A DNA stretch of 64,000 nucleotides from a phage: the sequence record OR896157.1, one strand, 5' to 3'. A model generated the notes under the pieces. The model made no database searches. It was given only the letters and a program-made list of their open reading frames with translations, and was not told where the DNA came from. Both the position numbers and the translations under genes were made by a program. This document shows positions 3,497 to 58,911 of the stretch, one piece after another; position 1 is the first letter of the stretch, and each line of letters opens with the position of its first letter.

Positions 3497-3522
3497 GACT
3501 CGGCTCTAGAATTAACTAGAGC
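3497..3522 (-). terminator. stem-loop downstream of gene 52 (GGCTCTAG-loop-CTAGAGCC)
   Basis: perfect 8-bp inverted repeat just after the gene 52 stop; no clear U-tract. Confidence 0.3.
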
Positions 3523-3545
3523 CGTTTAGAGTGATACAGAAGCTC

Positions 3546-4925
3546 TTAGAGAGCCTCTAGGTCCTTCATATACTCAATTTCTGGAGTAGTTTCTTGCCAG
3601 TACTTCAGCTCAGCTTTCAGGTCTTTAGCTTGTTGAGCAAGTTTCTTTGCTTCGTCACTTGTGATGTGATAGATGTTCATTGACACTAACTTGTCAACAA
3701 ATGGTGCATAAGTTGGACGAGATTCAAGTTCAGAAGTCAGTTGTTTACGAGTTTTGCCTTGAATGACAATACTACCTTCAATAACTTCTTTGATGAACAT
3801 CGCTTTAGCCAAAGCTAATTTGAATGCTTCATCGCATTCTTTGACTTTGTGTTCAATTCGTTTGACAATGTAAGTCTTACGAACTTCCACAAAGTGCTTG
3901 ATAAGTTCAGAAGAACTTTGGAACTTATCGTTTAACTTTCCGTTTTCATCAATGACCACGATGAATTGAGACATCTTCTCAACCAATTTGAAGTCACGCA
4001 TGATTTTCTCATGCCGCTGCTCATCGTCTTGGCCAAGCATATAATCTTTCTTGAACTTCACTTTAAAGCCAAAGCCGGTCTTTGAACAATCATCAACGTA
4101 AGAGATGAAGTTCTTATCTACCATTGGCTCAAGTACTTTTTCCACATAAGTTTCGCGGTCAAACTTAGCTGGAATTTCGCTGATGTACATTTGAGATGCT
4201 GAAGTGAACTTATAAAGACCACGGCATTCAATTGACCCATCTTCAAGACGAACTACTTCACCGCGGAATTGTGGAATTTGAACTTCTGGTTCTTTATCCA
4301 GTTTTCCTTGAAGAGCTAATTTAGTACATTCAACTACTGATTCAAAATTATGTGGAAGAATCTTAGTAGCATAACCAGTTGCAATTCCCTGTACACCGTT
4401 CAGAAGGACGGTTGGAATAATTGGAAGATAGAATGCAGGTGGAACGTGCTCTTTATCTTTATGCTCTGGAGCAATTTCAGTGTCTTTATAGACCTTACGG
4501 AAATTGTCAGAAATACGACAGAAGATATAACGAGATGCTGCCGCTTTTTGTACCAATCGTGAACCGAAGTTTCCTTGACCATCCAAAAGAGGATAGTTGT
4601 TGTTCCAAGTGTTAGCCATAAGCGCGCCAGCATCTTGTGCCGAGCCTTCGCCATGGTGATAACCGAGGTCAGCAACACCACCTGCCACAGAAGCCAATTT
4701 ATGGAATTTTTCTTTATTACCACGAGACAAATCTAGTGCACGAGCAATAACAAATCGTTGAACTGGCTTGAAGCCATCAATTAAGTTAGGAATTGCACGG
4801 TTTTCTACTGTGTAGATTGCAAATTCTTTGGCTTCATTGTCAATGATGCTTTGAAGGTTTCTTACATTAAGTTGACCAACAGAGTCATCGAGTTGTTTAG
4901 ACATCATGTCAAAAATAGTTGTCAT
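3546..4925 (-). CDS. 52: DNA topoisomerase II medium subunit gp52 (GyrA/ParC-like)
   Basis: 459 aa; contains IPNLIDGFKPVQRFVIARALDL and LDGQGNFGS topoisomerase motifs; matches remembered T4 gp52. Confidence 0.9.
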   Translation of the reverse strand: MTTIFDMMSKQLDDSVGQLNVRNLQSIIDNEAKEFAIYTVENRAIPNLIDGFKPVQRFVIARALDLSRGNKEKFHKLASVAGGVADLGYHHGEGSAQDAGALMANTWNNNYPLLDGQGNFGSRLVQKAAASRYIFCRISDNFRKVYKDTEIAPEHKDKEHVPPAFYLPIIPTVLLNGVQGIATGYATKILPHNFESVVECTKLALQGKLDKEPEVQIPQFRGEVVRLEDGSIECRGLYKFTSASQMYISEIPAKFDRETYVEKVLEPMVDKNFISYVDDCSKTGFGFKVKFKKDYMLGQDDEQRHEKIMRDFKLVEKMSQFIVVIDENGKLNDKFQSSSELIKHFVEVRKTYIVKRIEHKVKECDEAFKLALAKAMFIKEVIEGSIVIQGKTRKQLTSELESRPTYAPFVDKLVSMNIYHITSDEAKKLAQQAKDLKAELKYWQETTPEIEYMKDLEAL

Positions 4926-23212: not shown

Positions 23213-23573
23213 CAATAATACTGGCAACCTGTAACTCAAAGTTTTTAGTTCTGATAGTTTCAATAGCCGAATTCATTTCTTCTGTGTTTCCGCTAACAAC
23301 AATATCAGAAAAACTTTCATGAAGATTAACGAGTTCTTCGCTTCTTTCCATGAACTCTTGTTGAGTTATTTCAAGTTTAAAGAACTCTTTAGGAACTTCA
23401 AAGGTGTATTGACCCTTGGCTGCGATAACCCATTTTCCAAAACTGGATTTTATAGCTACATAGTCTTCAGGAGTGTTAAACTTCCAATGAGCTCTGTCAG
23501 CGTAAGCCGTGCTATGCTCAGCCGGAGAAGCTGGTCTCCCAGCTTTCTGCCACGCGTAATAATCAAATTTCAT
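23208..23573 (-). CDS. hypothetical protein (121 aa)
   Basis: minus-strand ORF, 1-nt overlap with gene 56. Confidence 0.5.
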   Translation of the reverse strand: MKFDYYAWQKAGRPASPAEHSTAYADRAHWKFNTPEDYVAIKSSFGKWVIAAKGQYTFEVPKEFFKLEITQQEFMERSEELVNLHESFSDIVVSGNTEEMNSAIETIRTKNFELQVASIIE

Positions 23574-24091
23574 TAATAACCTCGGTCTTGTCGAGCAAAG
23601 TTCTCTGCGTTTTTCAGATAATAGAGTTTGAACACTTCTTCAGCTGTCATACCAAGAGCCATAATTTTATTCAGGAAGAAGTGTAACTGGTCAATCAACT
23701 CAAATTTAATTTCAAGCTGGTCTTCTGGTGATAAGTCTTTAATTTTCTTAGACTGCATTTCTACATGTTGAGCTTTCCAAGGTTTCCACACAGCAGATGC
23801 TGCTTTTTCACCATTGCTCATACCGCCAAGTGCAGTATACAATTCGCGAGTTTCGTCTGCGATATAATCATCTTGAGCTCGCAACCAAGCTAGTACTTCA
23901 CCTGCGGTTTCCAGAGAATCTGGATGACGATTACTGAATGGTTTATCTTCAGCAAGACGAACTTGAAGAGATTTCTGCATATCGAGCATTACTTGCAGAG
24001 GATCTTGATGATTATCAATTACTGCATTATACGCACCGTTTGCTTGGTCCGCGCCTTCAATTAGATGTGAGCATTCATTAAAATGAGCCAT
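23573..24091 (-). CDS. 56: dCTP pyrophosphatase gp56
   Basis: 172 aa; MAHFNEC.HLIEG...DPLQVMLDMQ...EIKFEL.D..HF.LN...LGM.AEE.FKLYYLKN.ENFARQDRGY matches remembered T4 gp56. Confidence 0.9.
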   Translation of the reverse strand: MAHFNECSHLIEGADQANGAYNAVIDNHQDPLQVMLDMQKSLQVRLAEDKPFSNRHPDSLETAGEVLAWLRAQDDYIADETRELYTALGGMSNGEKAASAVWKPWKAQHVEMQSKKIKDLSPEDQLEIKFELIDQLHFFLNKIMALGMTAEEVFKLYYLKNAENFARQDRGY

Positions 24092-26612: not shown

Positions 26613-26641
26613 TTTATTTTCCTCAAATAGAGCCACATGCC

Positions 26642-26917
26642 TTATGCGCATACAAAATTGCTAGCGCGAACCAGACGAAAATCACCTGCTGCGTAGATAC
26701 CCATCGTTACATGGTCGCTAGTATCTAAGTAAGGGGGTACAATAACTTTAACCAATCCACCGTTGTCTAGAATTTCACGAATTACACCATCACAACGCAA
26801 ATTTGCGTCTTCAGCCTTGCGAACTATAGAACCAACTTTAAACGGTGTTGTCAGGATATTTGCTTTGTGAGTGCGAGCGGTTTCATCGATAAGTTTTTCA
26901 ATTGTCCAGATTGCCAT
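26642..26917 (-). CDS. hypothetical protein (91 aa)
   Basis: ATG at 26917 after AGAGGAAAA RBS. Confidence 0.45.
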   Translation of the reverse strand: MAIWTIEKLIDETARTHKANILTTPFKVGSIVRKAEDANLRCDGVIREILDNGGLVKVIVPPYLDTSDHVTMGIYAAGDFRLVRASNFVCA

Positions 26918-26946
26918 GATGTTTTCCTCTTGTTTGGTATGAGGTA

Positions 26947-26975
26947 ATAGTAACACACTTCCATGTGCGTGTAAA
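26947..26975 (-). promoter_or_regulatory. early promoter (TTTACA-17-TACTAT)
   Basis: just below gene 41 stop; its -10 side shares a 22-bp tract with the promoter at 58306-58334. Confidence 0.5.
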
Positions 26976-26978: not shown

Positions 26979-28421
26979 TTAGAATTTGAGGTCTTCAGCC
27001 AATGCATCGAGTTTAGCTCTTGCACTAGCGTTTTGTTCAACACGAGTCATTCGGTTACCTTCTGCAACTCGTTGCTGAGCGCCAGAAGTCTCTTTGACTG
27101 AAGTTGGTTGTTCACCATGTTCTTGAGCTATTTCTACCCAACGCTGATTGCCTTTACTTACACCAATCAAGAACTTATTGTTGATGTTCTTATCACCATA
27201 ACGAGACTTAATCTGCTTGATGAGCTGTTGACCTTGTTGAGCAAGTTCTTCAGTTTCAATTACCGCTAGCATAAAGTCTGCTGTTGCTGGTAGACCCGCG
27301 GATTCTGCAACATCACTCATTGAAACGTCAGAAGCATCCCAACCTGAACGAGTCGTCTGAGCTGCTGTCCACAAAACAGTTTCAGATTCAACAGCCAATG
27401 CACGAAGTTCTTCTGCAATAGCTTTAACTAATGTGTAGCTGTTTTCGGTATAAACTTTAATACGACAAGAAGCACAGATACCCAGATAGTCAATAATGAT
27501 GACATCAGGAACGAAATTCTTCTTCAGTTTAAGTTCATTCAATAACGCACGGAACGTATTTGCATGAGCTCCACCTGTTGGATATTGCTTGATAATCAGA
27601 CGACCAAGAGTATTCTTTGAGCGCCATTTTTCCATCTTACCTTTGTATTCAGCATATGAAATATGACCATCATCAATATCGTCCAACGATACATCAAGTA
27701 AGTTAGCATCAATACGTTTTGCGCAAACTTCTTCTGCCATTTCCATGGAGATATACAGAACGTTCTTACCCATCTGAAGATAGTCAGCAGCAAGAGAACA
27801 CAGACCTAATGACTTACCAACGTTTACACCGGCGAGTAATACGTTCAAAGTACCAGTCTCTGCACCGCCTTTTGTGATTCGGTTCAGAATATTGAGTTTG
27901 AATGCAACCTTACGAGCTTTATTCTGATAAGCTAACCAACGAGCTTCATGGTCTTCCATCCAATCATGACCAATGTAACTATCAAATGAAATTGACAGAG
28001 CAGCTCGCATGATGTCTGGAATTGCACCTACATCAGGAAGTTTTTTGTTTCGTTTTTCTGGTGGAAGTTGGGCGTTAGTCTGAATTTCAATAATCTTTGA
28101 TGTTGCATTGTACATCGCAGATTCTTGAACAAAACGTTCAGTTTCGGCTACGAGCCAGTTTAAATCTTCTGGAGTATCTTGAAGCTTATTAATTAACTCA
28201 CTTGCGCCCTGTACTTCAGTTTCAACTAACTGACTATTATCCAAAGCTACCGCTAATGCAGTTTTACTTGGAACAGCTTGATATTTAAGAACGTGCTGAT
28301 GAATCAGTTTGAAAACATTTTTGGCTGGGCCATGTTCAAAATACTCATCTCCCATATAAGGCCAAACCTTCGCGAAGAAGGCCTGATTATACAGCAAATG
28401 AGATAAGATTGTTTCTACCAC
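26979..28421 (-). CDS. 41: replicative DNA helicase gp41 (DnaB-like)
   Basis: 480 aa; long near-identical blocks to remembered T4 gp41 (e.g. ILSHL...KVWPYM, GVNVGKSLGLCSLAADYLQ); start codon GTG after GAGGT RBS. Confidence 0.9.
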   Translation of the reverse strand: MVETILSHLLYNQAFFAKVWPYMGDEYFEHGPAKNVFKLIHQHVLKYQAVPSKTALAVALDNSQLVETEVQGASELINKLQDTPEDLNWLVAETERFVQESAMYNATSKIIEIQTNAQLPPEKRNKKLPDVGAIPDIMRAALSISFDSYIGHDWMEDHEARWLAYQNKARKVAFKLNILNRITKGGAETGTLNVLLAGVNVGKSLGLCSLAADYLQMGKNVLYISMEMAEEVCAKRIDANLLDVSLDDIDDGHISYAEYKGKMEKWRSKNTLGRLIIKQYPTGGAHANTFRALLNELKLKKNFVPDVIIIDYLGICASCRIKVYTENSYTLVKAIAEELRALAVESETVLWTAAQTTRSGWDASDVSMSDVAESAGLPATADFMLAVIETEELAQQGQQLIKQIKSRYGDKNINNKFLIGVSKGNQRWVEIAQEHGEQPTSVKETSGAQQRVAEGNRMTRVEQNASARAKLDALAEDLKF

Positions 28422-28431: not shown

Positions 28432-28818
28432 TTAAAATAGTTTGAAACGTTTTTTCTTTCTCATAATTTCGGCGTGAGCCTGTTGAATTTGTATTTTAAT
28501 ACATTTTTCAACATGTGGTGCAAGGTCGGCTTTTCGTGATTCGTCCAACGTAGAGAACTCTAGTGACACCTGGCCGCTTTCGTCCAAGTGTAATGAGGTA
28601 ACATATACGATATGTTCCTCGCCATCCTCTAGGGTTATCAGGATTTCCTGAACGACATTCTCCATAGCCTTTTGGACTATTTCTAGACTCTTTTTAAACA
28701 TCCGCTCAGTTCTTTCAAATTCCCCCTCCTGAGAGGGGGTTTCGTCCTGAACTTCAACTTCAGTCAAATCGAGGTCTAAGTCCTCGAAATTATTCTTCAT
28801 CGTAATTTTCCAGTTCAT
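28432..28818 (-). CDS. hypothetical acidic protein at the T4 gene 40 position
   Basis: sits between 41 and uvsX; sequence identity to T4 gp40 not recognised. Confidence 0.4.
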   Translation of the reverse strand: MNWKITMKNNFEDLDLDLTEVEVQDETPSQEGEFERTERMFKKSLEIVQKAMENVVQEILITLEDGEEHIVYVTSLHLDESGQVSLEFSTLDESRKADLAPHVEKCIKIQIQQAHAEIMRKKKRFKLF

Positions 28819-29953
28819 CTTCGATTGAAGCTGGAGTTGCTCTTACTTCGCCTTCCGGAGCATGGAACTCTTCGGTCTTCGAATTAATCAGAGCATCAAC
28901 TTCTTCATCTACTACTGCATTGGTTTCAATAGCACCCAGCTGATAGCGATTTTTAATAGCATCGCGGAATGGCTGATGTTTAAACAGAGGGCCCCAGAAT
29001 GCGGTGCTTGAAGTATCTTTTGCACGCCATGATTTCTCTTCGCGAACCATTTCACCGGTATCTACGTCCAGATATTCACGAGCATACCAACCGTTTTTAG
29101 GTTTAACTACAAAACCAAGTTCCAGCGCCATATCCAACAGACCAGAGTATGGGTCAATACCGCCATCGAATTTAACATCAATGAAGAACTTACTCTTCTC
29201 TTTAACGGTACGAGATTTCTCAGCATTCAGAACAAACTGATAACCTTGAAGGTCTGTACCATCTTTAATCTGACGCTTACCGATGATGAACACAGTATCT
29301 GCTGAGTACATTGGACCTGTACCACCAGTCATCACAGTCTTACTGAACATCTCAATTGTTTCGATCGTGTGGTTAACCGCAACGCATGGAATGTTTTTAA
29401 TAGAGAAGTAAGGTGTAACAATACGGAACAGAGACTTCAGTGATTTCGCACGAGTCATATCTGCAACTGATTTTTCGTTCAGAGCATCTTCTGTTTCTTT
29501 CTTAGAAGCAAGGTTACCGATGGAGTCGATGAATACGATAACTTTCTCACCGCGTTCAATTTCTTCCAGCTGGTTGACCATGTCAATCTTAAGCTGCTCA
29601 ACAGATTGCACAGGAGTGTGTACTACACGGTCCGGGTCAACACCCATTGCACGAAGATATGCTGGAGTGATACCGAATTCTGAGTCGTAGAACAGACAAA
29701 TAGCATCCGGATATTTTGTCATATAAGCGGAAACCATAGTCAGACTCATATTTGACTTGAAGTGCTTTGACGGGCCCGCAAAGATTGTTAAACCTGATTG
29801 CATGCCACCATCTAATGCACCTGAAATCGCGATATTAAGCATCGGAATCTTAGTACGAACTACATCCTTTTCATTGAAGAATTTGGATTTATCCAGAGAT
29901 GCGGTCATTTTAGAAGTGGATGCTTTAATCAGACGAGATTTTAAATCAGACAT
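28790..29953 (-). CDS. uvsX: UvsX recombinase (RecA-like)
   Basis: 387 aa; RecA-fold with Walker A-like GPSKHFKS, matches remembered T4 UvsX. Confidence 0.9.
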   Translation of the reverse strand: MSDLKSRLIKASTSKMTASLDKSKFFNEKDVVRTKIPMLNIAISGALDGGMQSGLTIFAGPSKHFKSNMSLTMVSAYMTKYPDAICLFYDSEFGITPAYLRAMGVDPDRVVHTPVQSVEQLKIDMVNQLEEIERGEKVIVFIDSIGNLASKKETEDALNEKSVADMTRAKSLKSLFRIVTPYFSIKNIPCVAVNHTIETIEMFSKTVMTGGTGPMYSADTVFIIGKRQIKDGTDLQGYQFVLNAEKSRTVKEKSKFFIDVKFDGGIDPYSGLLDMALELGFVVKPKNGWYAREYLDVDTGEMVREEKSWRAKDTSSTAFWGPLFKHQPFRDAIKNRYQLGAIETNAVVDEEVDALINSKTEEFHAPEGEVRATPASIEDELENYDEE

Positions 29954-30035: not shown

Positions 30036-30090
30036 TTGCAATGCGGTGAATCATTTTGACAAGGTGTGTAACAACAAGCATTACAATGAC

Positions 30091-30107
30091 CACCGACAGA
30101 GTCGGTG
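30091..30107 (-). terminator. stem-loop after beta-glucosyltransferase (CACCGAC-AGA-GTCGGTG)
   Basis: 7-bp stem; weak U-tract. Confidence 0.3.
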
Positions 30108-30116
30108 GTGTATTCT

Positions 30117-31193
30117 TTAGATTTCAATTGCTTTCTTGAATTCAGCTTGCCAAATTGGTTTTTCATCAAGATATTTTTGAAGAATTTTATGCTGATATTC
30201 GAGAGTTTCAATTCTAAAGTCCTCGTCGTTTTTGATTTTATTAATTTTTTCAACAAGCTCTTGACGATTGCTCACATAGAAGAACTCATTACCTTCCATG
30301 ATATTCATGTCAGGGTCAAATGTGCTATCGAAGAATGCCACTGCAGTAGATGCCAGAGCTTCCCATACACGAGGAGTGATTTGGTTATTATCGTAAGTCT
30401 TATCACCGAGTACGATAGTAGCATACGCGGTTGAGTTACGTTGAACCATTTCACGAGAATCTACCTTCCCAGGAAATACTGGAGGAGTAGTCCAAGGGAA
30501 TTCTGGATTCTTGAATTGGTCTGCCTTTACTGAACCAAAGAACTCAACATCCAGGCCAGTGTCAAACAGATATTCAACCATCTTAGCTTCACGATTACCT
30601 GAACGGAATGTTCCACCATAAATCAGGTCACGCATTTTGATGCCATCAGCAGCAATCTTGAAGACGCTGTGATACATCTTATGACGGTCCAGTGCGAAGT
30701 GTACAAATTCCATTCGGTCTTTAGAGACACCGACTAAACGGTCAGAGTGAATTCGTTTAGCTTGTTCAAGGTCACGGCCCTGAGAAATTACGCGAATTGG
30801 AGAGCGAACAATGAACTGCTCTTCAGTGTATTTGCTGGACCATTTTTTCTTCGACATTCGGCGCCACGCTTGTTCCCACGGAAGACGAATATCAGTGAAC
30901 AGATAATAAATCTTTGACTTATATTTGTTCAAGAACATATAAGCCGCTTTATTCATCTTGTTCTCTTCACCACCGTAGAAGTTCAGAGAAGCATTAACTA
31001 CCAGAACTCGGTCATATACATTCGGGTCTGGGACATCATCAAATGCGATGCCATATTGAGTATTTTTCATTGAAATGAGGTCAACATCAAGCCCCATATC
31101 TTTTAAGCATTCGGACAGATAAATTGTCTCAGAAGCAGGGGTTGTTTTAAACCCCTGGATGTTGTTACCTAAGTTCAGGATAGCAATTTTCAT
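30117..31193 (-). CDS. bgt: DNA beta-glucosyltransferase
   Basis: 358 aa; MKIAI.N.GNN...KSKIYYLFTDIRLP...IYGG.FRSG.RE.KMVE.LFDTGL..EFFG...QFKNP..PWT..PVF.GK matches remembered T4 beta-gt; same locus. Confidence 0.8.
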   Translation of the reverse strand: MKIAILNLGNNIQGFKTTPASETIYLSECLKDMGLDVDLISMKNTQYGIAFDDVPDPNVYDRVLVVNASLNFYGGEENKMNKAAYMFLNKYKSKIYYLFTDIRLPWEQAWRRMSKKKWSSKYTEEQFIVRSPIRVISQGRDLEQAKRIHSDRLVGVSKDRMEFVHFALDRHKMYHSVFKIAADGIKMRDLIYGGTFRSGNREAKMVEYLFDTGLDVEFFGSVKADQFKNPEFPWTTPPVFPGKVDSREMVQRNSTAYATIVLGDKTYDNNQITPRVWEALASTAVAFFDSTFDPDMNIMEGNEFFYVSNRQELVEKINKIKNDEDFRIETLEYQHKILQKYLDEKPIWQAEFKKAIEI

Positions 31194-32026
31194 AAAGTAG
31201 GCTCAATCTCACTGAATTTTTTGAAAGCATCTGACTTTTGTTTCTTGGCTACGCACATACGAAGTACTTTCAGAGGCTCGTCAGTGCCAAACATAGTTTT
31301 GGTTGGGTCACCTTCTGATTTCCAACGAGCTTGAGTTGGGAAGTCAGCATGAATTTTTTCTAATGCGCGGTTTTGTTTAGCCGCATTACGCATAGATGAT
31401 ACGCCGCCTGGAGCTTGTCCTTTGCCAGATTTGACGAGATATTTGAAAATCGCCAGATGAGGATAACCCATATTAATGAGTTTAAGGAATGCGTATGTAT
31501 CTTCGGACAGGTCTACTATACCATATCCAATGTCATCAGCAGAAAGTTTGCTTAAATCGTAGAAAGTGTTAGTGAATCCATAAGAGTTCTCACGGAAATG
31601 ACCCCACTTAGAATCAATCTTGAAAATAGGCAAACGAGCATGGCCGTGATAGAATCCACAGTCCATAGCTGCTTCAACATACTGTGTGAGTTTATTGAAT
31701 TCGTCCCATGTCATTCCAACATCATGAAGAATACGACGGTCGTCTTTAGCACGAATCTCAGTGGTATGAATTGTAGTGTCATCGTCTAGCATCCAGATTC
31801 GTTGGCCTTGATACATTTCAGTAATCAAACGACGAGTACCAGCAATGCCATTTACATCATCTGGAATAGTTACGATTTTAGCTAACGCGCTGTAATGCAT
31901 CTCATATTCTTCTTTCTGAGACTCACGAACTACTAAATGAGGTACATAACCAGTAGGGAACATATCCAGGGCAGTAACTGCCCCGACACGATTGTAACTC
32001 GGAATTACAAATTGAATCATTTCCAT
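31190..32026 (-). CDS. second glycosyltransferase, GT-A-like (278 aa)
   Basis: N-terminal IPSYNR and a DDD (DxD) motif; translationally coupled to bgt. Confidence 0.5.
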   Translation of the reverse strand: MEMIQFVIPSYNRVGAVTALDMFPTGYVPHLVVRESQKEEYEMHYSALAKIVTIPDDVNGIAGTRRLITEMYQGQRIWMLDDDTTIHTTEIRAKDDRRILHDVGMTWDEFNKLTQYVEAAMDCGFYHGHARLPIFKIDSKWGHFRENSYGFTNTFYDLSKLSADDIGYGIVDLSEDTYAFLKLINMGYPHLAIFKYLVKSGKGQAPGGVSSMRNAAKQNRALEKIHADFPTQARWKSEGDPTKTMFGTDEPLKVLRMCVAKKQKSDAFKKFSEIEPTL

Positions 32027-32754
32027 TTGCCTTTGTAGTCAGATTTCTTAACATCAATCCGGCCGGTTTGACGATAATGGTCAACCAGATAGAAATGACG
32101 TTCATACACATGCAGAGACCCAGCGTTCCAAATAATGTCGCCTGGAACATATTTTTCACCAGAGCCTGCATTAACTGTTTCTACTAATGATTCTAACACA
32201 TATTTCTGCCAAGCATAATCATTGCGGAAACCAAATACAACATCATTGCTTCGCATATTAACGACAGCGTTTACACGACCATCACGAATAAGATATTGAA
32301 CTGTGTTAGTGCACATGAAATCACTCATACCATCACGTTCAAAATCAACTTGCATACTTGGACGAGTGTAAATCATAATTGCGCGGCGAGAGTCTGGTTT
32401 TTCAATCAGCTCAGTTGCACAGAATGAGAATTGATTATAGTTTTCAGCAGACCAGATTGCCCAGCCATAGTTTGAGTTAATTTCACCCTTTGAAGATGAA
32501 ACTTGTTCCCAAATTGCCGGAGTACCACCCGGAATATCTTTCACGAACAGAGACTTGGATTTGTACCACGCAAGTTCACGTTCAACATATTCTTGGTTAA
32601 CTGTTCCGAAAATTGAATCTTCGGTTACTACAAAAGATGGACCAATTAACTCAATGGTCTTTGCGCCAGTTTTGTCAATTACAAACATCTCGTTGAACAG
32701 AGCATGGCACAGTTCATCACGAATATCTTCGTTAGTCAGTGGAGTTACAATCAT
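32017..32754 (-). CDS. 42: dCMP hydroxymethylase gp42
   Basis: ATG at 32754 after GAAGAGG RBS; ELAWYKSKSLFVKDIPG...WEQV.SSKGEINSNYGWAIWS...MCTNTVQYLIRD...NAVVNMRSNDVVFGFRNDYAWQKYVL matches remembered T4 gp42. Confidence 0.9.
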   Translation of the reverse strand: MIVTPLTNEDIRDELCHALFNEMFVIDKTGAKTIELIGPSFVVTEDSIFGTVNQEYVERELAWYKSKSLFVKDIPGGTPAIWEQVSSSKGEINSNYGWAIWSAENYNQFSFCATELIEKPDSRRAIMIYTRPSMQVDFERDGMSDFMCTNTVQYLIRDGRVNAVVNMRSNDVVFGFRNDYAWQKYVLESLVETVNAGSGEKYVPGDIIWNAGSLHVYERHFYLVDHYRQTGRIDVKKSDYKGKWK

Positions 32755-33191
32755 TTTGCCTCTTCGTAGTTTTTCTTCATACAACGTTTAAATGCTTCAT
32801 ATTGGCCAGAAGACCTGAAGTTTTCAAATGCGTTGATATTTTTGCGGGTAGGATTATTATACATTGTTTGATATAAAGCAGCACCATGGAATTCAACGAT
32901 AGCTTGGCACTTACGAGCAGCTACTCGCTTTTCATAAGTAGCGTCAAGTTCTCGCTGCTTTTTCATAACGCGTGCTTGGTCACGAGCGATAGGGTCATTA
33001 GCCTGCTGCTGAGCAAGATATTCTTCGCCTTCACGAATAGAAGACTGCTTGACCTGCGGAGTTGAACGAGCATACACCAGACCAGTGCCGCCTACATACT
33101 TAACTTGCCCTACAGTACTAGCATGAACAGTGTCTCCTTGATAAGCACAACCTGCCAGTAACATAGCAGCAGCTACTGCTAAAAATTTCAT
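32751..33191 (-). CDS. predicted lipoprotein (146 aa) at the T4 imm locus
   Basis: MKFLAVAAAMLLAGC signal peptide with classic lipobox LAGC; ATGA-coupled to gene 42. Confidence 0.55.
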   Translation of the reverse strand: MKFLAVAAAMLLAGCAYQGDTVHASTVGQVKYVGGTGLVYARSTPQVKQSSIREGEEYLAQQQANDPIARDQARVMKKQRELDATYEKRVAARKCQAIVEFHGAALYQTMYNNPTRKNINAFENFRSSGQYEAFKRCMKKNYEEAK

Positions 33192-33486: not shown

Positions 33487-36195
33487 TTAGAAATCAAACA
33501 TATTGTCTAAAGACGCTTTTTCTTCATAGTCTAATCCAGAAGCTTCTGACATACCAGCAAGTGGCTTAACGAAAGACTTTTGGAACAGAGTCGTATAGTC
33601 CAACCAAGCCAGAACATCTTGACGAATTTCCTGCGGAAGTTCAGTACCTGATGGCCAGGCGATACACTTGTCACCGAATGGGTTACCCTGACGAAGTGGA
33701 AGAACCATCACCTTGTTACCCTCGAGAATCGGAGTGACAGAGAATCCTGCCGTTGCACGATTATAAGTCAGTGCACCACGAACGTGATATGGACATTTCA
33801 GACCAGGGAAACCATTATCGTCATATTTACCAATGTCATTACAAGTTTTAACTTCTGCAATAACTTTGTAGTCCAGCTGACGATATTCCTTCTCAAACTG
33901 TTTGTAGTATTCTTGCAGTGATTCTTCGCCTTCTTGAACCATACGACGAATACTTTCTTCCAGTGCTTTCTGAACTGCTTTTGGCGTAGAAGACTGCTGA
34001 GTTTCCATGCCCATAATCTTCAAGTGTGGTTCAGCATAACGCTTATCTTCCATGTCGTAAACGTTCAGTGCATAACGTTTCTTAGCTTTCCAGAATCCAC
34101 CACAACCTTTTGAACCAAGCGGCGGACATGAAATAGCTTCTCGGTCCATGTGCATAAGATGTTCACGGTTATTGAAATATTCGCACAGTTCACGATAAGC
34201 AGTATCAATCATCGGTTCCATTTTCTTCTTACCGAATTGGTTCATAAATTCAACCACTTCGTCAGTCGTTTTGAAACGTTCAAGACCTACTTTTTCAATA
34301 ACTTTGTCAACAGAAACGTAGATTGAGTCAGTATCACCTGCTGCGATGAAATCAAATCCTTCAGTTCCACACACTTTATTCAGATACTCGTTAACTTTAC
34401 GAGCAATCCAACGAATACCTACTTGACCAAACAGTGTAATAGCAGATGCGTTACGAAGGTCATAATAACGGAAGTAGATGTTACCCAAAGCACCATAAAG
34501 ACTGTTGATAAGAATCTTACGGTTCAACTGGTTTGTGTTTGCTAGAATAGCAGCAGCTTCACATCGAGCCAGCATAGTTTCCAACACCAACTTCGTGTAC
34601 TTATTCAGTGATGCTTTCTGTTCGTCAGTGTACTGAGTGTAACGAGTTTCATCTGGAGTATCAATGTCACCGAATACGCCAGCTGCCAGAACTTTCTTAA
34701 TTTCTTCTGCGTTACGTTCTTCTGCGAACATCTTTTTCTTCCAATCTTTACGCTGGAAGAATACCTTAGCGATTTCTACTGGGATGACACCTTCAATATC
34801 TTTACGATACATCCAACCGTTCGGTGAGCAAGAATACTCGTCACTTGGACGTGGTGCAGTCTTATTGATATAAGCTTCAATATCATAAAGTTTGAATTGA
34901 CCAACAATAGTTTCCGGAGAAATATTCACCTGACGAATGATACTCGGATACAGAGATGTTAAGTCAAAACTCATGATGTACTTACGAGCGCATGCTAATG
35001 GTTCAAATACATATGCACCTGGATAACTTTGCTTGATATGACGCTTACCTTGAGGAACAACTTTGTTCTGTTCTTTCAGGGAGTTAAAGATAATTGCGTC
35101 CCAAGTTTTAATCGGAGACATTACACCACCAAACGGCATCTTGGCATAATAAGACATACTAAGTGCCAGGTCAATGAATCCACGAACTCGGTCAATACCA
35201 CCTACGGACTCAACGTCCATAATGTTATAGCTAATGTATCGTTGGTGATTTGTTTCACGAAGTTTGTTAATTGGACCATCGTATGGCAACTTACCACGTT
35301 TAGTCTCGTATAGAGCGATGTAGTCCAAGTTATAAGTTGGTTGGTTCGTGAATGAATACTTCTTGTACAAATCCATGTAATCCAGAATTGTTACACCATC
35401 AATACTGAATACTTCTTTTTCACCGTACATGTTCTGAATGAGTTTTGAATTCACTCGATTGATTGGAGAGAATCGTTTCATTGAACGTTCACCCAATACA
35501 TGCTTAACACGGTTCATGATGTATGGAATATCGAAGCCTTCAATGTTCCAACCCGTGAAGATTGCTGGACGCTTTTGTTCCCAGAGATTGATATATTCCA
35601 GAAGAAGTTCTTTCTCTGAATGGAAAGGCATGTACACTACACGGTCGAGAATATGTTGTGGAACTTCGTCTCCACCTTCTTTATCACTTCGTGCAGCTAA
35701 CTTCGCGTCCCATTCTGAAACTGAGCCATACAGAGAATCTAACAAATCGAAAACGTAGAACTTATCATCGATTGAATCATAATGAGTGATTGCATCGATT
35801 TCGTACATAGCTTTCATTGGGTCTGGGAATTTATCACCTGTAACTTCGATGTCACAGTTCGCAACACGAATGAATTTCTTGTCATAAACAATTTCAGAAC
35901 CATAAGTGTCGGAGATATAAGCGAGTTTGAAGTCATCCATACCCATGGCTTCAAGACCGATATCTTCCATACGACGAATCCAATCACGAGCATCTTTCAT
36001 GGTTGGGAATGTGTTTTTGATACATGGTTTCCCATAGATATCAAAGAACTTTGTCTTCACACCTTGTTGAGCATGAGAAAACATAGTTGGAGAATATTCA
36101 ACTCGTCGTTGACGTTCTACACCATTGGAGTCAATATAACGTTCAATGATGTCATTACCTGCGGTTTCAATAGAGATATAAAATTCTTGTGCCAT
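33487..36195 (-). CDS. 43: DNA polymerase gp43 (family B)
   Basis: 902 aa; exonuclease and polymerase motifs of family B (e.g. ...DIEV...DTDS...); matches remembered T4 gp43. Confidence 0.95.
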   Translation of the reverse strand: MAQEFYISIETAGNDIIERYIDSNGVERQRRVEYSPTMFSHAQQGVKTKFFDIYGKPCIKNTFPTMKDARDWIRRMEDIGLEAMGMDDFKLAYISDTYGSEIVYDKKFIRVANCDIEVTGDKFPDPMKAMYEIDAITHYDSIDDKFYVFDLLDSLYGSVSEWDAKLAARSDKEGGDEVPQHILDRVVYMPFHSEKELLLEYINLWEQKRPAIFTGWNIEGFDIPYIMNRVKHVLGERSMKRFSPINRVNSKLIQNMYGEKEVFSIDGVTILDYMDLYKKYSFTNQPTYNLDYIALYETKRGKLPYDGPINKLRETNHQRYISYNIMDVESVGGIDRVRGFIDLALSMSYYAKMPFGGVMSPIKTWDAIIFNSLKEQNKVVPQGKRHIKQSYPGAYVFEPLACARKYIMSFDLTSLYPSIIRQVNISPETIVGQFKLYDIEAYINKTAPRPSDEYSCSPNGWMYRKDIEGVIPVEIAKVFFQRKDWKKKMFAEERNAEEIKKVLAAGVFGDIDTPDETRYTQYTDEQKASLNKYTKLVLETMLARCEAAAILANTNQLNRKILINSLYGALGNIYFRYYDLRNASAITLFGQVGIRWIARKVNEYLNKVCGTEGFDFIAAGDTDSIYVSVDKVIEKVGLERFKTTDEVVEFMNQFGKKKMEPMIDTAYRELCEYFNNREHLMHMDREAISCPPLGSKGCGGFWKAKKRYALNVYDMEDKRYAEPHLKIMGMETQQSSTPKAVQKALEESIRRMVQEGEESLQEYYKQFEKEYRQLDYKVIAEVKTCNDIGKYDDNGFPGLKCPYHVRGALTYNRATAGFSVTPILEGNKVMVLPLRQGNPFGDKCIAWPSGTELPQEIRQDVLAWLDYTTLFQKSFVKPLAGMSEASGLDYEEKASLDNMFDF

Positions 36196-39723: not shown

Positions 39724-41408
39724 TCCAGTACCGTAAAGCGTCCAACTTTCTTCATTTGAAGATGTTGTCCGTATGCTTGAGGGTCATGGTCTCGGTGAGA
39801 AATTATAAAAATATTTGAATTTGGCATTTTACTAAGAATGTTATTAATTGCTTTAACACCCTCAGCATCGGTGGCGGAGTCAAAAATTTCATCTAAGAAC
39901 AGACAACTTATTTTAACACCAGATACCAATTCAGCAATATCACGCCAAGTAAATAACAGCGCAATATCAATACGAGCTTTCTCGCCTTGACTGAAAGAGT
40001 TATAACTAAACTCTTCGCGTCCTCGGGATTTAATCGTTTCGTTGAACTCTTCATTCAACGTAAAGACGTAATCCGCATCCATTATCTTCAAGTATGTATT
40101 AATCTGCTTATTGAACAGAGGAATGTACTTCTTAATGATTGCGCCTTTAATACCAGAATCCTTGAACATTTCTGTAAGAATACCACGTTGATATTTTTCC
40201 ATAACAATGTTGGATTTGGTATCAACTATTTTATTCAATTCTTCTGTAAGCGTTTTGATTTCATCTGAATAATCAATGAACTCTTCAGCTGCTTTATCAA
40301 TAGCTGCTTTAATCTTACGAATACGCTCTATAGCTGCTTTTAACTCTTCGGTTTTGGCTGCGACTTGTCCTCGGATGTCTCTGGCTCGGCGTTTAACCGC
40401 TTCATATTCAATTTGGGAAGCCTGAAGATTCTCTAGATGCGTTTTTAACTCAGCATGTTTGATATTACATTCATCAACTTTCGAGTTAATCTGGCCGATT
40501 AGAGCATCACTAGAGTGCAAATCCTGCAAACATGTTGGACAATGACCGCCTTTATCATACAACGACAGAACTTTTGTGTATGACTCGATGCGGTTCAGAA
40601 TAGTCATCCCAGCCATCTGAGTTTTCTGAATTCCTTCAGACACATCATCTTCTTCGCCAATTACGATGTTAGCCAAGTTCTTGTTCAGCTCGTCGATAGT
40701 TGAACGAATGTTACGAGCATCAGCCATAGACTCTTCGTACATACTCTGCCAACGAGCAACGTTTTCGCCAGAAAGTTTCTTTTGCTTCTCTATGTTTTCT
40801 TCATAGATTTTGATTTGTTGCTGAATTCCGTCTTTCTTTGCATCAAGAACTTGAACTTGAGAATTCAGTTCTCGAACCAAAGACTTATTCAGTTTATCCA
40901 TTTCAGCAATGATTGAAACTTCAAGCAGGTCTTCTACTAACTTTCTCCGAGCGGGTGTACTAAGACCCATAAACGGAGTGTAGCCTGCTGTTCCGAGTAC
41001 CACGACCTGCTTGAAACTCGTGTATGACATTCCAATGAGTTCTTCGAAATAACTTTGGAAGTCTTTAACTGAAGCTGCTTCATCAAGTTTAGCACCGTCG
41101 CGTTCAATTTCAAAGACATTTGGTTTCTGTCCACGTTTGATGTAATACGAATGACCGTCATATTCCATCCACAATTCGCAGAGCAATCCTTTCTTATTGG
41201 TGGAATTAATTAATTGGCCTTTCTTGAAATCACGGAATGGCTTACCAAACAATGCGAACGTAATCGCTTCAAGCATTGTACTTTTACCGGCACCATTCTT
41301 ACCAGTGATTAATGTTTTGTGAACCTTATCAAGTTGAATATCAATGGGCTGTCCGCCCACTGACATAATATTTTGATACTTGACTCGGTTCAATTTGAAA
41401 ATCTTCAT
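39720..41408 (-). CDS. 46: recombination endonuclease subunit gp46 (SbcC/Rad50-like ATPase)
   Basis: 562 aa; Walker A GKNGAGKST near N-terminus, long coiled-coil middle, C-terminal Walker B/D-loop region. Confidence 0.9.
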   Translation of the reverse strand: MKIFKLNRVKYQNIMSVGGQPIDIQLDKVHKTLITGKNGAGKSTMLEAITFALFGKPFRDFKKGQLINSTNKKGLLCELWMEYDGHSYYIKRGQKPNVFEIERDGAKLDEAASVKDFQSYFEELIGMSYTSFKQVVVLGTAGYTPFMGLSTPARRKLVEDLLEVSIIAEMDKLNKSLVRELNSQVQVLDAKKDGIQQQIKIYEENIEKQKKLSGENVARWQSMYEESMADARNIRSTIDELNKNLANIVIGEEDDVSEGIQKTQMAGMTILNRIESYTKVLSLYDKGGHCPTCLQDLHSSDALIGQINSKVDECNIKHAELKTHLENLQASQIEYEAVKRRARDIRGQVAAKTEELKAAIERIRKIKAAIDKAAEEFIDYSDEIKTLTEELNKIVDTKSNIVMEKYQRGILTEMFKDSGIKGAIIKKYIPLFNKQINTYLKIMDADYVFTLNEEFNETIKSRGREEFSYNSFSQGEKARIDIALLFTWRDIAELVSGVKISCLFLDEIFDSATDAEGVKAINNILSKMPNSNIFIISHRDHDPQAYGQHLQMKKVGRFTVLE

Positions 41409-42427
41409 TGATTCTGAGCCTCAACATAAAGAGCTTGTGCAAATTTTTTCAATGCAGCATTATCAGTTGGAGATAAGTCTTCCAATGCATCAATATATTC
41501 TGACATCAAATCTAATAAGCTTTTAACTTCGATATCTTCTTCGTCATCAGATTCAACTGAGTTGTCAATCTTAGAAACCATACGAAGCTCGTGAACTACT
41601 TTTTCGAGTTCAGTTTCAAACTTCGTGATGTCTTTATCAACATCAGTGACAATTACTCGGACTGAAAGATTTTTGTAGTCGTTGTAATCAATCTTACCTG
41701 TAAATGGATATTGAAGTCTTACATGCCAAGTGGTTTCGTTTGGCACAAAATCCATACTTTCCGTTGCGGTATCGAAAATCCAGAATCCGCGAGGGTCGTT
41801 CTCGTCACCTGCTGTAAGGGTCCAGGGAGTGCCGATATACTTAACATTGGCAGCAGAGGATATAGTATGGAAATGCCCTGACCACACTTGCTTATATGAC
41901 TTAAGGAAATCTGGCTCGAGACCATGAGATTTTAAACCCTTGTAGTAATAGAAGCCATTAAGCTCCCAGTGTCCAATACAATACTCTGCAGATGATTCTT
42001 TAACATGCTTCATAATAGAAGCTACGTTTTCATCACAAAGCCATGGAATTAGGTCGATTAAGCATCCATCAAAATCAACAGTAGTAGGCACATCATAAAT
42101 TTTGATGTGGTCATGTTTGCCCAATACTTCTGTGATAGCGTTAGGATGAATTTTATTCTTATAATGCATATCGTGGTTTCCGATGATTGTATGCATCGTA
42201 ATCCCAGCTTCTGCTAGCATATCAACTATTTCACGAGCGAATTCCATCGTCTTGTGAGTAATAGCTTTACGTACGTCAAAAATATCTCCATACTGAATCC
42301 ACACGGTAATTCCATGCTTCTTCGAGTACTCAATTTTTTGACGAATACCATCACGTTGAATTTCTTGAAGCCAAGGGTCATCACCCTTTACGCCCAGATG
42401 CCAGTCACCTGTGTGAAGAATTTTCAT
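41405..42427 (-). CDS. 47: recombination endonuclease subunit gp47 (SbcD/Mre11-like phosphoesterase)
   Basis: 340 aa; MKILHTGDWHLG and GNHD calcineurin-like phosphoesterase motifs. Confidence 0.9.
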   Translation of the reverse strand: MKILHTGDWHLGVKGDDPWLQEIQRDGIRQKIEYSKKHGITVWIQYGDIFDVRKAITHKTMEFAREIVDMLAEAGITMHTIIGNHDMHYKNKIHPNAITEVLGKHDHIKIYDVPTTVDFDGCLIDLIPWLCDENVASIMKHVKESSAEYCIGHWELNGFYYYKGLKSHGLEPDFLKSYKQVWSGHFHTISSAANVKYIGTPWTLTAGDENDPRGFWIFDTATESMDFVPNETTWHVRLQYPFTGKIDYNDYKNLSVRVIVTDVDKDITKFETELEKVVHELRMVSKIDNSVESDDEEDIEVKSLLDLMSEYIDALEDLSPTDNAALKKFAQALYVEAQNQ

Positions 42428-42567
42428 TTCTTTTTCCTCAATTTAAGACGGCGATGTGGAAGTTTTATTTTAATCGCAGATGTATGTTCTCTTTTACCTG
42501 ATATTTGAATCCAGTTAATTTTCATATTTCACCTCAAAGAGATTATATTCTATACTCCAGAAAGCAG

Positions 42568-42587
42568 AAAGGGCCCGAAGGCCCTTT
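42568..42587 (-). terminator. hairpin AAAGGGCC-TTCG-GGCCCTTT upstream of gene 47
   Basis: GC stem, CGAA loop, followed by UUUCUGCUUUCU. Confidence 0.45.
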
Positions 42588-42774
42588 AAATTTTACTGTA
42601 TGTGATAGTTACTTCGGCTTTTGCTTTATCATATGACATCTTGAACCGCCTCATCATTTCAGTCTTGCCGTTATGAATCTTTGCATAATCAATAGCTCTT
42701 TCTAAAGCTTCAGCCGAATAAACAGTTCCGTTGCGGGATACTACAGCAGCTTTTAATATTACAGCTTCCACCAT
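42586..42774 (-). CDS. hypothetical protein (62 aa)
   Basis: minus-strand ORF. Confidence 0.4.
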   Translation of the reverse strand: MVEAVILKAAVVSRNGTVYSAEALERAIDYAKIHNGKTEMMRRFKMSYDKAKAEVTITYSKI

Positions 42775-42968
42775 GGCTTCACCATAATTGTATCAGCCCA
42801 GACTAATTCCTTTTTAGTAGCTTTAACTACTGGATTGATAGGACCGGTTTCACCCAAGACTTTGTAATGGGTTTCAGATACTTTAATAGCCATTACACCA
42901 TCAGCAACAGACAAAGTGAAACCTGCGTTTACTTTCAGACGTTTGAATTTAACCTGCTTTATAGCCAT
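42759..42968 (-). CDS. hypothetical protein (69 aa)
   Basis: minus-strand ORF. Confidence 0.4.
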   Translation of the reverse strand: MAIKQVKFKRLKVNAGFTLSVADGVMAIKVSETHYKVLGETGPINPVVKATKKELVWADTIMVKPWWKL

Positions 42969-43317
42969 TTAAAATTTCCCAGATCTGACGACGAGTGGTT
43001 TCCCATTGGACTTTGATAAGCTCGTCATTGAATGGTTGACGTAAGATTTTACGAGATTTTTCAATCGCATACTTATACGCCGCGAAGTTGTTATCGAGAA
43101 CTGATTGCTGAGCATGTTTGTTCAAACGTTCAAGTTCGCGACTATTTTTCTTGATAATTTTATCAGCTTTAGATTTAGCATTTGCTGCAATTCGAGCTTG
43201 TGCTTCTTCAATAGCTGCAAGACGATCTTCTTCCATTAATTTCTGATGGTCTGGATCTTCAATCAACTGGTCTTGATATTCAAGTTCTGCTTTGAATGCT
43301 TCGCCTGGTTGTAGCAT
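42949..43317 (-). CDS. hypothetical protein (122 aa)
   Basis: minus-strand ORF. Confidence 0.45.
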   Translation of the reverse strand: MLQPGEAFKAELEYQDQLIEDPDHQKLMEEDRLAAIEEAQARIAANAKSKADKIIKKNSRELERLNKHAQQSVLDNNFAAYKYAIEKSRKILRQPFNDELIKVQWETTRRQIWEILNGYKAG

Positions 43318-43323
43318 AATTCC

Positions 43324-43551
43324 TCATTCTGGAAAGTATTCTAATGTGATATAAAAATCATCATCAGATATATGGTAATTGTAGTTCAAGTCTTTGCCAT
43401 CGCACTTGAACTCTGTATCATGTGGGTTCTTGGGGTCGATGTGAATGTCCAAATCCAATACCTCCCTCATATACATTTTAAGCAAATAAGGGATAGCATC
43501 GTAATCGGGCACTTCTTCTAAAAATCCTGCGAGGTTAATCGTCAGCCTCAT
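43324..43551 (-). CDS. hypothetical protein (start uncertain)
   Basis: minus-strand ORF overlapping 3-prime end of gene 55. Confidence 0.4.
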
Positions 43552-44068
43552 ATAAAAAATCCAAACTTGGACCTTCATCTACAACATCGCTCTTTTTGTC
43601 AGACCCTGGCTGTTTGTAGGTGGAGGTTTCGTAATGCGTCATTTTATCATAGATGTCTTGAATAAAAGTTTCATCTACTAACGCAACCATATCATCGTCA
43701 CGAGCATCATAGACGTTGTGAACGAAATAGCTATACTTCTTAGCAACTTCCTTACGCTCTTTCTTGATACGTTGGACGAATGCGTTAAAGCAAGCACGGG
43801 TTATATACGCATGCGGGTTGTCATACTTTGTTTCATCGAAGTTGTGTAGACCTTTAATCGAAGCTTCTACACCGTCTGAAATCATTTCATCTTTCCAAGA
43901 GCGGGTGTACCCTGAAAAGTTAAAACGCTTACTCAGACCCTCAGATATCAACATAATTGCTCTGCCGATAGTATCATTCTGACGAACGGGTTTACCAGCT
44001 TCGCGGCATTGCTGTTTCCACTCAGTGATGGCTTTCAGCAACTCCTTATTATTTACATAGTTAGCCAT
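43535..44068 (-). CDS. 55: late sigma factor gp55
   Basis: 177 aa; [111 protein letters not shown] nearly identical to remembered T4 gp55. Confidence 0.9.
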
Positions 44069-58618: not shown

Positions 58619-58626
58619 CAATATTT

Positions 58627-58911
58627 TTAAGCAATGTATGGAGTTGCTGAACCGTCTGAATAACGCGCCCATACTTCGTTGCCGACGTTGAAAAGTTTTG
58701 CTTTACGACCGTTAGGCATCTGAACCATTTTGCTTTTAACCGGAGTTACAGCTTCAATCAAAGTTCCAGCAGCTTTTGCATTTTCTTTAGTTTTAAGAAT
58801 TTTTTCCATGTATTCAACGTATTCGATGATAGCAGGTGCCATATGCTGTTTGTGGCCCATACCGCCAAAATCGAATTCAGTTACTGCGTAGAAAGTTTTT
58901 GAAGTAGCCAT
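58627..58911 (-). CDS. hypothetical protein (94 aa)
   Basis: minus-strand ORF. Confidence 0.45.
   Translation of the reverse strand: MATSKTFYAVTEFDFGGMGHKQHMAPAIIEYVEYMEKILKTKENAKAAGTLIEAVTPVKSKMVQMPNGRKAKLFNVGNEVWARYSDGSATPYIA

Follow-up and report, generated by a model that had tools for sequence, protein, structure and literature searches.

The sugars carried on hydroxymethylcytosine (hmC) determine which host defences a T-even-type phage evades (McrBC, GmrSD/BrxU, CRISPR-Cas and the glycosylases Brig1 and Brig3, the last of these with BapA). T4 DNA carries alpha- and beta-monoglucosyl-hmC, while T2 and T6 DNA carries alpha-monoglucosyl-hmC, alpha-gentiobiosyl-hmC and 25% naked hmC; the pattern that would be expected for the phage analysed here differs from both. 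The second sugar in T2 and T6 is attached by the product of ba-gt (also called g-gt or TAGT), which we take to be the glucosyl-DNA beta-glucosyltransferase EC 2.4.1.28 and which puts a beta-1,6-linked glucose onto glucosyl-hmC. T6 without ba-gt loses this second glucose (PMC11078745).

Phages CC31 and PG7 of the genus Karamvirus were tabulated by Thomas et al. 2018 (PMC6024577, Table 1) with a-gt absent, b-gt present and ba-gt present, and Salmonella phages S16/STML-198, Citrobacter phages Moon/Merlin and Serratia phage PS2 likewise carry the pair of b-gt and TAGT. A 2026 survey in NAR (PMC13216743) described b-GT plus TAGT as a common combination and called the function of TAGT in such phages undefined. 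Our literature search found no published DNA chemistry for any b-gt + TAGT phage (Karamvirus, Moonvirus, Gelderlandvirus and S16 included), and the gene pair raises the question of whether beta-glucosyl-hmC is accepted by the second transferase.

The gene 42, TAGT and b-gt locus

The window (the whole 64,000-nt stretch of phage DNA that was analysed) was assigned by nucleotide identity to Karamvirus, as a CC31/PG7-type T4-like Enterobacter phage. Its nucleotide identity was 99.5% with Enterobacter phages SonariX and vB_Ecl_id4496 (95–99% in the comparison with the complete genome of the latter), and PG7 and CC31 were 96–98% identical to its locus. The CC31/PG7 type has the same genes in the same order (42, TAGT, b-gt and uvsX), the same ATGA overlaps and the same absence of a-gt with no substantive difference; the window represents a further isolate of this genus. 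The b-gt and TAGT gene content is already carried by the PG7 RefSeq annotation and, given the 2018 table and the 2026 survey, the combination of b-gt and TAGT without a-gt is already known in this genus. The tandem is common to about 60 sequenced Enterobacter, Salmonella, Citrobacter and Cronobacter phages at a nucleotide identity of at least 80%, several of which are candidates for therapy or biocontrol with an inferred DNA chemistry. The features of the locus were as follows.

23573..24091, minus strand: gene 56 homologue (dCTPase/dUTPase); phrog_173 at 7e-44
30089..30109, minus strand: GC-rich hairpin of 9 bp directly 3' of the b-gt stop; -14.8 kcal/mol, z = -2.8
30117..31193, minus strand: DNA beta-glucosyltransferase (b-gt), 358 aa; Pfam, PHROG and T4 alignment
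31190..31193, minus strand: ATGA overlap of the TAGT stop and the b-gt start; read from the sequence
31190..32026, minus strand: GT-A glycosyltransferase of the TAGT family, relative of T2/T6 beta-alpha-gt; phrog_842, T2 identity and structure model
32017..32020, minus strand: ATGA overlap of the gene 42 stop and the second TAGT ATG; read from the sequence
32017..32784, minus strand: gene 42, dCMP hydroxymethylase; 69% identity to T4 gp42 and Pfam Thymidylat_synt

The open reading frame at 31190-32026 encodes 278 aa if read from its first ATG and 276 aa if read from that at 32020, and the latter, which is the start annotated in PG7 and T2, is likely to be the TAGT start. Gene 42 was listed as an open reading frame from a TTG, and its real start is likely the ATG at 32754. 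The gp42 proteins of T4 and the window have the stretches DFMCTNT and MRSNDVVFGFRNDY in common, and the gene 56 product shows 100% identity to the dCTP pyrophosphatase (gp56) of the PG7 annotation; both pathway genes had been recognized in the first-pass annotation, which was made from the letters and their open reading frames.

The 4-nt overlap between TAGT and b-gt was also present in PG7, S16 and a further contig (P0003), and that between gene 42 and TAGT was identical in the PG7 annotation. Given these ATGA overlaps, translation of gene 42, TAGT and b-gt is probably coupled from one gene to the next, and the hairpin at 30089..30109 is likely to act as a terminator or stabiliser of their common transcript. 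The order of the three genes was kept even in Serratia PS2-type and Acinetobacter phages, whose proteins share only 43–49% identity.

In T2 and T6, ba-gt likewise follows gene 42 directly and overlaps it by ATGA, and it has the GT-A fold and motifs of the window TAGT, but its partner is alpha-gt, its acceptor is alpha-glucosyl-hmC and no b-gt follows it. In both T4 and the window, b-gt closely precedes uvsX in the order of transcription, although in T4 segA, which the window does not have at this site, stands between the two. The T4 gene is partnered with alpha-gt and has no TAGT neighbour, the opposite of the window on both counts.

The two glycosyltransferases

The b-gt product matched Pfam PF09198 at 4e-60 with 202.7 bits (cutoff 27), covering all 167 profile positions, and phrog_7922 at 1e-221 over its full length, along which it was also 49% identical to T4 b-gt. 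In the pairwise alignment it keeps E22, D100, R191, R195, R269 and E272 of the T4 enzyme, which we take to be catalytic or UDP-Glc-binding residues, while S189 is replaced by T. D100 of T4 BGT is catalytic (bioRxiv 10.1101/2023.12.21.572611), and the structure of the T4 enzyme is PDB 1JG7 (cited in PMC13216743). The dN/dS of b-gt was 0.05–0.07 against S16 and Merlin. By family membership (PF09198, CAZy GT63), the product is assigned as a T4-type DNA beta-glucosyltransferase, a GT-B enzyme, in agreement with the homologue that the first-pass annotation had placed at 30117-31193.

The same annotation had described the neighbouring frame as encoding a coupled 278-aa protein with GT-A motifs, and the open reading frame, the motifs (IPSYNR and DDD) and the ATGA overlap were all found in place. 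The protein matched phrog_842 ('beta-glucosyl-HMC-alpha-glucosyltransferase') at 2e-82 and proved to be a full-length relative of T2/T6 ba-gt, with 65% identity over 276 aa (E = 2e-124). Against Pfam TAGT (PF20691.3) it scored 25.0 bits, 2.5 below the cutoff of 27.5, and a representative (P0001) that is 96% identical to it has a precomputed match to PF20691.4. A PDB profile search by sequence returned no relative, and an NCBIfam search returned no match for b-gt or TAGT.

The structure search pointed to a GT-A fold. With the AF2 model of TAGT (pLDDT 86, pTM 0.86) as query, the top Foldseek matches were GT-A/GT2-like enzymes (E = 4e-7) and TAGTs of phages (E as low as 3e-47). The nearest solved folds included TarS and TarP, which are inverting wall-teichoic-acid enzymes, and other GT-A enzymes, and others have reported a similarity to base-J glucosyltransferase. 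Among viral models, the ba-gt of a Klebsiella phage (TM 0.97) and proteins with a TAGT domain were the nearest. An inverting mechanism is consistent with a beta linkage made from UDP-alpha-glucose. In the family alignment, R65, D81-D83 and E175-D176 of the R...DDD...EDxY active-site motifs were invariant and Y178 was nearly so. Homology and the predicted fold together place the product of 31190-32026 as a GT-A fold enzyme of the T2/T6 beta-alpha-gt clade. Its gene, with a dN/dS of 0.03–0.06 at a dS of 0.8–0.9, is under strong purifying selection and in use.

[quoted passage not shown] The window protein is, however, 65% identical to the T2/T6 enzyme and only 11–19% identical to these generic TAGT proteins, and b-gt alone is already able to saturate hmC. 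The DNA of T2 and T6 alpha-gt mutants is unglucosylated, which also counts against a primary role. The T2/T6 enzyme has moreover been described as using already glucosylated hmC (PMC13216743; PMC11078745; bioRxiv 10.64898/2026.02.25.707755), and we consider it unlikely that the window TAGT is a primary transferase.

Absence of alpha-gt and the proposed DNA modification

Between genes 47 and 55, where T4 encodes alpha-gt, the first-pass annotation had noted four small open reading frames and no alpha-gt. The corresponding features were as follows.

41405..42427, minus strand: gene 47 (SbcD-like nuclease subunit), flanking marker; phrog_100 at 6e-135
42428..42585, minus strand: 158-nt gap without coding sequence at the vacant position of alpha-gt, flanked by gene 47 and the a-gt.2 homologue; synteny
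42586..43578, minus strand: four small open reading frames, homologues of T4 a-gt.2, a-gt.3, a-gt.4 and a-gt.5; blastp
43535..44068, minus strand: gene 55 (late sigma factor), flanking marker; phrog_234 at 2e-67

The interval was indeed made up of the four small frames (42586-42774, 42759-42968, 42949-43317 and 43324-43578) and the gap, in the place of which T4 has 47.1, a-gt and mobB. The small frames matched T4 and PG7 proteins by blastp at E of 3e-14 to 1e-40 and belong to PHROG families without known function. A tblastn search with T4 alpha-gt found no match in the window (best E = 1.0) or in the complete 172,413-bp vB_Ecl_id4496 genome (best E = 1.3), and an alpha-gt elsewhere combined with a non-glycosyltransferase frame beside b-gt was thus not encountered. 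Among 50,697 phage records, 'Enterobacter' was not one of the ten most frequent names in the alpha-gt (PF11440) matches, and TAGT and b-gt each matched 27 Enterobacter phage records. As neither the window nor vB_Ecl_id4496 encodes an alpha-gt that could supply alpha-glucosyl-hmC as the acceptor, beta-glucosyl-hmC is the sole possible glucosylated acceptor in this phage.

We propose that gp42 and gp56 would give hydroxymethylcytosine DNA, onto which b-gt, judging from its homology and kept catalytic residues, would move glucose from UDP-glucose in a beta linkage. Since there is no competing alpha-gt and b-gt alone glucosylates about 100% of hmC in T4 delta-a-gt (bioRxiv 10.64898/2026.02.25.707755), essentially all hmC would become beta-glucosyl-hmC. 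The GT-A enzyme, from its 65% identity to the T2/T6 enzyme, would then attach a second glucose to the first, most likely through a beta-1,6 bond, and the product would be gentiobiosyl-hmC with an inner linkage that is beta, not alpha as in T6. The best explanation of the locus, which we regard as probable on this homology, is beta-glucosyl-hmC that is partly extended to beta,beta-linked gentiobiosyl-hmC. The extended fraction is unpredictable, because the near-identical enzymes of T2 and T6 extend 5% and 72%, respectively; the DNA would be expected to contain no alpha-glucosyl-hmC and little naked hmC.

The first-pass annotation had offered two chemical options, of which homology supports the disaccharide, whereas no evidence backed the non-glucose sugar. 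TAGT might nevertheless extend beta-glucosyl-hmC with a sugar or bond other than that of T6 (such as a hexose that is not glucose, or a 1,2, 1,3 or 1,4 linkage), given that related phage GT-As install diverse glycans (bioRxiv 10.1101/2023.12.21.572611), that 35% of the TAGT residues differ from the T2/T6 enzyme and that genes of the phosphomannomutase-like and cupin/GPI-like kinds lie close to this tandem in an Acinetobacter phage. On the other hand, the family motifs are all shared with the UDP-glucose enzyme, as is most of the core, no further GT copy was found in the vB_Ecl_id4496 genome, and no sugar-nucleotide synthesis gene is listed in the examined part of the PG7 annotation; we rate a departure from the T6 sugar or bond as unlikely.

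We put it at about an even chance that Karamvirus-type DNA carries a chemically undescribed Glc-beta-1,6-Glc-beta-hmC (the beta,beta stereoisomer of T6 gentiobiosyl-hmC), in which nearly every hmC is beta-glucosylated first and the second transferase is indifferent to the anomer. If this is true, the DNA would be predicted to evade Brig1, which is specific for alpha-glucosyl-hmC, Brig3, which requires naked hmC, and the deglucosylase BapA, by which gentiobiose is not removable.

Primary partners across the TAGT family

The only characterised relatives of TAGT work on alpha-glucosyl-hmC, and acceptance of the beta anomer in this phage is a prediction from sequence comparison. For 11 cluster representatives of TAGT, a neighbour-joining tree was built with 200 bootstraps and residues were compared between the alpha- and beta-partnered proteins. 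The alpha-partnered TAGTs (Klebsiella Jiaodavirus and Tequatrovirus) were monophyletic in 0 of the 200 bootstraps, the Klebsiella TAGT clustered with the beta-partnered Karamvirus-type TAGTs in all 200, and the beta-partnered state was the more widespread one and basal in the tree. No alignment column strictly separated alpha- from beta-partnered TAGTs among the 11 representatives, the one class-level difference being K224 -> Q, which lies outside the motifs. What is new here is that the TAGTs paired with alpha-gt are not monophyletic and are without any partner-specific residue. Together these two observations favour a TAGT to which the anomeric state of the first glucose makes no difference. 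This would explain how one lineage of the enzyme occurs alongside either of the primary transferases, and the interleaved tree and the lack of a partner-specific residue would provide a prior for beta-glucosyl-hmC acceptance.

Were TAGT instead specific for the alpha anomer, it would have been kept without a usable acceptor and the DNA would contain beta-monoglucosyl-hmC only, a reading to which the characterised enzymes lend some support, as both their name and the tests made on them concern alpha-glucosyl-hmC only. The low dN/dS (0.03–0.06), the intact motifs and the coupled order at 43–49% identity argue for a selected activity, and the wide and basal occurrence of the beta-partnered state also speaks against it; we regard an enzyme without an acceptor as very improbable.

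Anomer indifference, our preferred reading, is itself to be seen against the history of the locus. In the gp42 and UvsX trees, Klebsiella grouped weakly with Tequatrovirus (105/200 and 90/200, respectively), unlike in the TAGT tree. From this conflict between TAGT and its flanking genes the locus is read as mosaic, and recombination, not promiscuity, could therefore account for part of the pattern; the partner-swap argument is to be weighed accordingly.

In Klebsiella Jiaodavirus, an 83-aa open reading frame 3' of TAGT is annotated as a 'putative glucosyl-transferase'. A b-gt remnant at this site would have pointed to differential loss from an ancestral tandem, but this origin was rejected as the frame had no similarity to beta-gt (E = 0.40); it encodes a Cys-rich protein of phrog_11273.

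Organization of the transferase locus

The first-pass annotation had described a beta-glucosyltransferase (beta-gt) coupled to a second glycosyltransferase (TAGT) in the presence of genes 42 and 56, and each of these parts was confirmed. T4 gene order is kept in the minus-strand block around the transferases as follows.

Features of the window around the transferases and the alpha-gt site
23573-24091, gene 56 homologue
26979-28421, minus, gp41
between gp41 and uvsX, minus, gp40
28790-29953, minus, uvsX
30117-31193, minus, 358-aa beta-gt (Pfam, PHROG and T4 identity)
31190-32026, minus, 278-aa TAGT (phrog_842 and T2 identity)
32017-32784, minus, gene 42
between gene 42 and gp43, minus, two small ORFs
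33487-36195, minus, gp43
41405-42427, gene 47, which ends the block
43535-44068, gene 55

The 358-aa protein matched the Pfam family 'T4-Gluco-transf' at 4e-60 (202.7 bits against a cutoff of 27), was covered over its full length by phrog_7922 and was 49% identical end to end to T4 beta-gt, whose residues E22, D100, R191, R195, R269 and E272 were all retained. The gene 42 product was 69% identical to T4 gp42. Since the gene 42 stop overlaps the second ATG of TAGT in an ATGA and the TAGT stop overlaps the beta-gt start in another, the three genes are chained; a 9-bp GC-rich hairpin lies 3' of the beta-gt stop.

The 278-aa protein matched phrog_842 'beta-glucosyl-HMC-alpha-glucosyltransferase' at 2e-82 and the T2 enzyme of that name with 65% identity over 276 residues, while narrowly missing the Pfam TAGT cutoff (25.0 against 27.5 bits). 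No solved relative was found by sequence. An AlphaFold2 model computed from 11 homologues (pLDDT 86, pTM 0.86) had as its best solved-structure matches the GT-A enzymes WrtF fucosyltransferase, AvpGT, the teichoic-acid GlcNAc transferases TarS/TarP and chondroitin polymerase (E 4e-7 to 1e-5, TM about 0.5). Its best match among viral models was the ba-gt of Klebsiella phage PKO111 (TM 0.97), followed by many 'TET-associated glycosyltransferase' proteins (TM 0.6-0.8). In the homologue alignment R65, D81-D83 and E175-D176 were invariant and Y178 nearly so, corresponding to the R...DDD...EDY/F active-site signature of phage GT-A DNA glycosyltransferases (bioRxiv 10.1101/2023.12.21.572611).

Between gene 42 and gp43, roughly at the T4 imm/imm.1 position, a 146-aa ORF (32751-33191, minus) begins with MKFLAVAAAMLLAGCAY, a stretch resembling a lipobox-containing lipoprotein signal peptide. 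The ORF product matched phrog_1754 (unknown function) and, below threshold, a lipoprotein family, and could be a superinfection-exclusion lipoprotein.

The alpha-gt site

The earlier claim that only four small ORFs and no alpha-gt lie between genes 47 and 55 held. These ORFs are homologues of T4 a-gt.2, a-gt.3, a-gt.4 and a-gt.5, and the space between 47 and a-gt.2, occupied in T4 by 47.1, a-gt and mobB, is a 158-nt gap in the window (42428-42585). A tblastn search with T4 alpha-gt found no homologue in the window (best E = 1.0). Because the window covers only 64 kb, the complete genome of Enterobacter phage vB_Ecl_id4496, to which it aligns at positions 19005-83787 with 95-99% identity, was assembled, and the same query found no alpha-gt there either (best E = 1.3). 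Among 50,697 phage records, 657 carried alpha-gt, 'Enterobacter' not being among their ten most frequent name groups; TAGT had hits in 27 records of Enterobacter phages, and so did beta-gt.

Although the window and vB_Ecl_id4496 are 95-99% identical elsewhere, three window segments (42586-43418, 26613-26970 and 58620-58943) lacked a strong match in that genome at the nucleotide level. The first spans the a-gt.2 to a-gt.4 homologues, which share just 52-72% identity with their PG7 counterparts; the surroundings of the former alpha-gt site are a hot spot of mosaicism.

Predicted modification and the anomer of the first glucose

With T4 beta-gt as the sole transferase, about 100% of hydroxymethylcytosine (hmC) becomes glucosylated, and alpha-gt leaves about 25% bare (bioRxiv 10.64898/2026.02.25.707755). 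The T2/T6 enzyme adds a beta-linked glucose to already glucosylated hmC, giving gentiobiosyl-hmC (bioRxiv 10.64898/2026.02.25.707755; PMC11078745). The second addition is proven genetically for T6 ba-gt, as T6 delta-ba-gt has alpha-glucosyl-hmC only (PMC11078745). In the window's phage, beta-gt would convert essentially all hmC to beta-glucosyl-hmC, of which the GT-A enzyme would extend some fraction to Glc-beta-1,6-Glc-beta-hmC. The gene content supports the first-pass interpretation, the modification itself being predicted from sequence. The extended fraction is not predictable because T2 reaches 5% and T6 72% with very similar enzymes.

Acceptance of the beta anomer by TAGT is the weak step of this pathway. 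We compared TAGTs by partner class, the primary transferase that accompanies each, using 11 aligned representatives of the 13 clusters (90% identity) in the close TAGT family. Adjacency to beta-gt was verified for the PG7-type enzyme, the representatives P0003 and P0007, Serratia phage PS2 and an Acinetobacter contig, and the Klebsiella Jiaodavirus and Tequatrovirus genomes were confirmed to encode both TAGT and alpha-gt. No column of this alignment separated the two classes, and the single class-level difference, K224 to Q, lay outside the motifs. In none of 200 bootstraps were the alpha-partnered TAGTs monophyletic, the Klebsiella enzyme clustered with the beta-partnered Karamvirus-type enzymes in all 200, and the basal branches were beta-partnered. 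The gp42 and UvsX trees disagreed, weakly, with the TAGT tree, so the locus is mosaic. For this small sample from a mosaic locus, the pattern argues for an anomer-indifferent TAGT and against two kinds of TAGT.

In Klebsiella phage ValerieMcCarty05 (L012), an 83-aa Cys-rich ORF (3340-3591) coupled to TAGT by ATGA is annotated 'putative glucosyl-transferase'. It had no similarity to beta-gt, and the annotation looks wrong.

Conservation and known relatives

In comparisons with phages Merlin (Citrobacter) and S16 (Salmonella), dN/dS was 0.03-0.06 for TAGT (dS 0.8-0.9) and 0.05-0.07 for beta-gt. The order 42, TAGT, beta-gt recurs in Serratia phage PS2, a related metagenomic contig and an Acinetobacter T4-like contig, where both transferases share just 43-49% identity with the window's; it is also present in a fourth lineage, where TAGT identity is 85%. 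A decaying or idle TAGT gene would not look like this.

The locus is 96-98% identical to those of PG7 and CC31, and in the PG7 RefSeq record the counterparts are already named beta-glucosyltransferase and beta-glucosyl-HMC-alpha-glucosyltransferase. In Table 1 of Thomas et al. 2018, CC31 and PG7 appear with no a-gt, a b-gt 49% identical to T4 and a ba-gt 65% identical to T2; the authors note that such phages may differ in their linkages (PMC6024577). A 2026 NAR paper reports alpha-GT or beta-GT alongside TAGT in most phages with such enzymes (PMC13216743). At the level of genes the finding is thus not new, and the tandem without alpha-gt is ordinary for the genus Karamvirus. Our literature search found no measured DNA chemistry for phages with beta-gt and TAGT. 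DNA with the predicted modification would escape the glycosylase defences, reported in 2024-2026, that are specific for alpha-glucosylated or for naked hmC.

The nearest relative, Enterobacter phage SonariX (PQ898399.1, hit H1; 99.5% identical), is recorded at 248,734 bp against about 172 kb in other Karamviruses, a length that may reflect concatenation or mis-assembly. In L015, the metagenomic contig carrying P0003, TAGT shares 85% identity with that of the window, but the adjoining gp42 just 58%, below the 69% of T4 gp42; the two have sharply different histories despite adjacency. PS2-type phages, seen in Serratia phage PS2 (L008, 9025-9951) and in L014 (3014-3955), carry between gene 42 and TAGT an extra ORF of 308-313 aa that matched phrog_3891 (unknown function) and no Pfam family, and might encode a third modification enzyme. 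Just beyond gp41, near the tandem of the Acinetobacter contig (L013, 7825-8813), cupin/glucose-6-phosphate-isomerase-like and phosphomannomutase-like genes hint at a phage-encoded sugar supply and possibly at another sugar on the DNA. In Merlin (L010, 294-1370), the annotated beta-gt CDS (294-1274) is 96 nt shorter than that from the ATGA-overlapping start, which yields the conserved N-terminus MKIAIINMGNN; the annotated start is probably mis-called.
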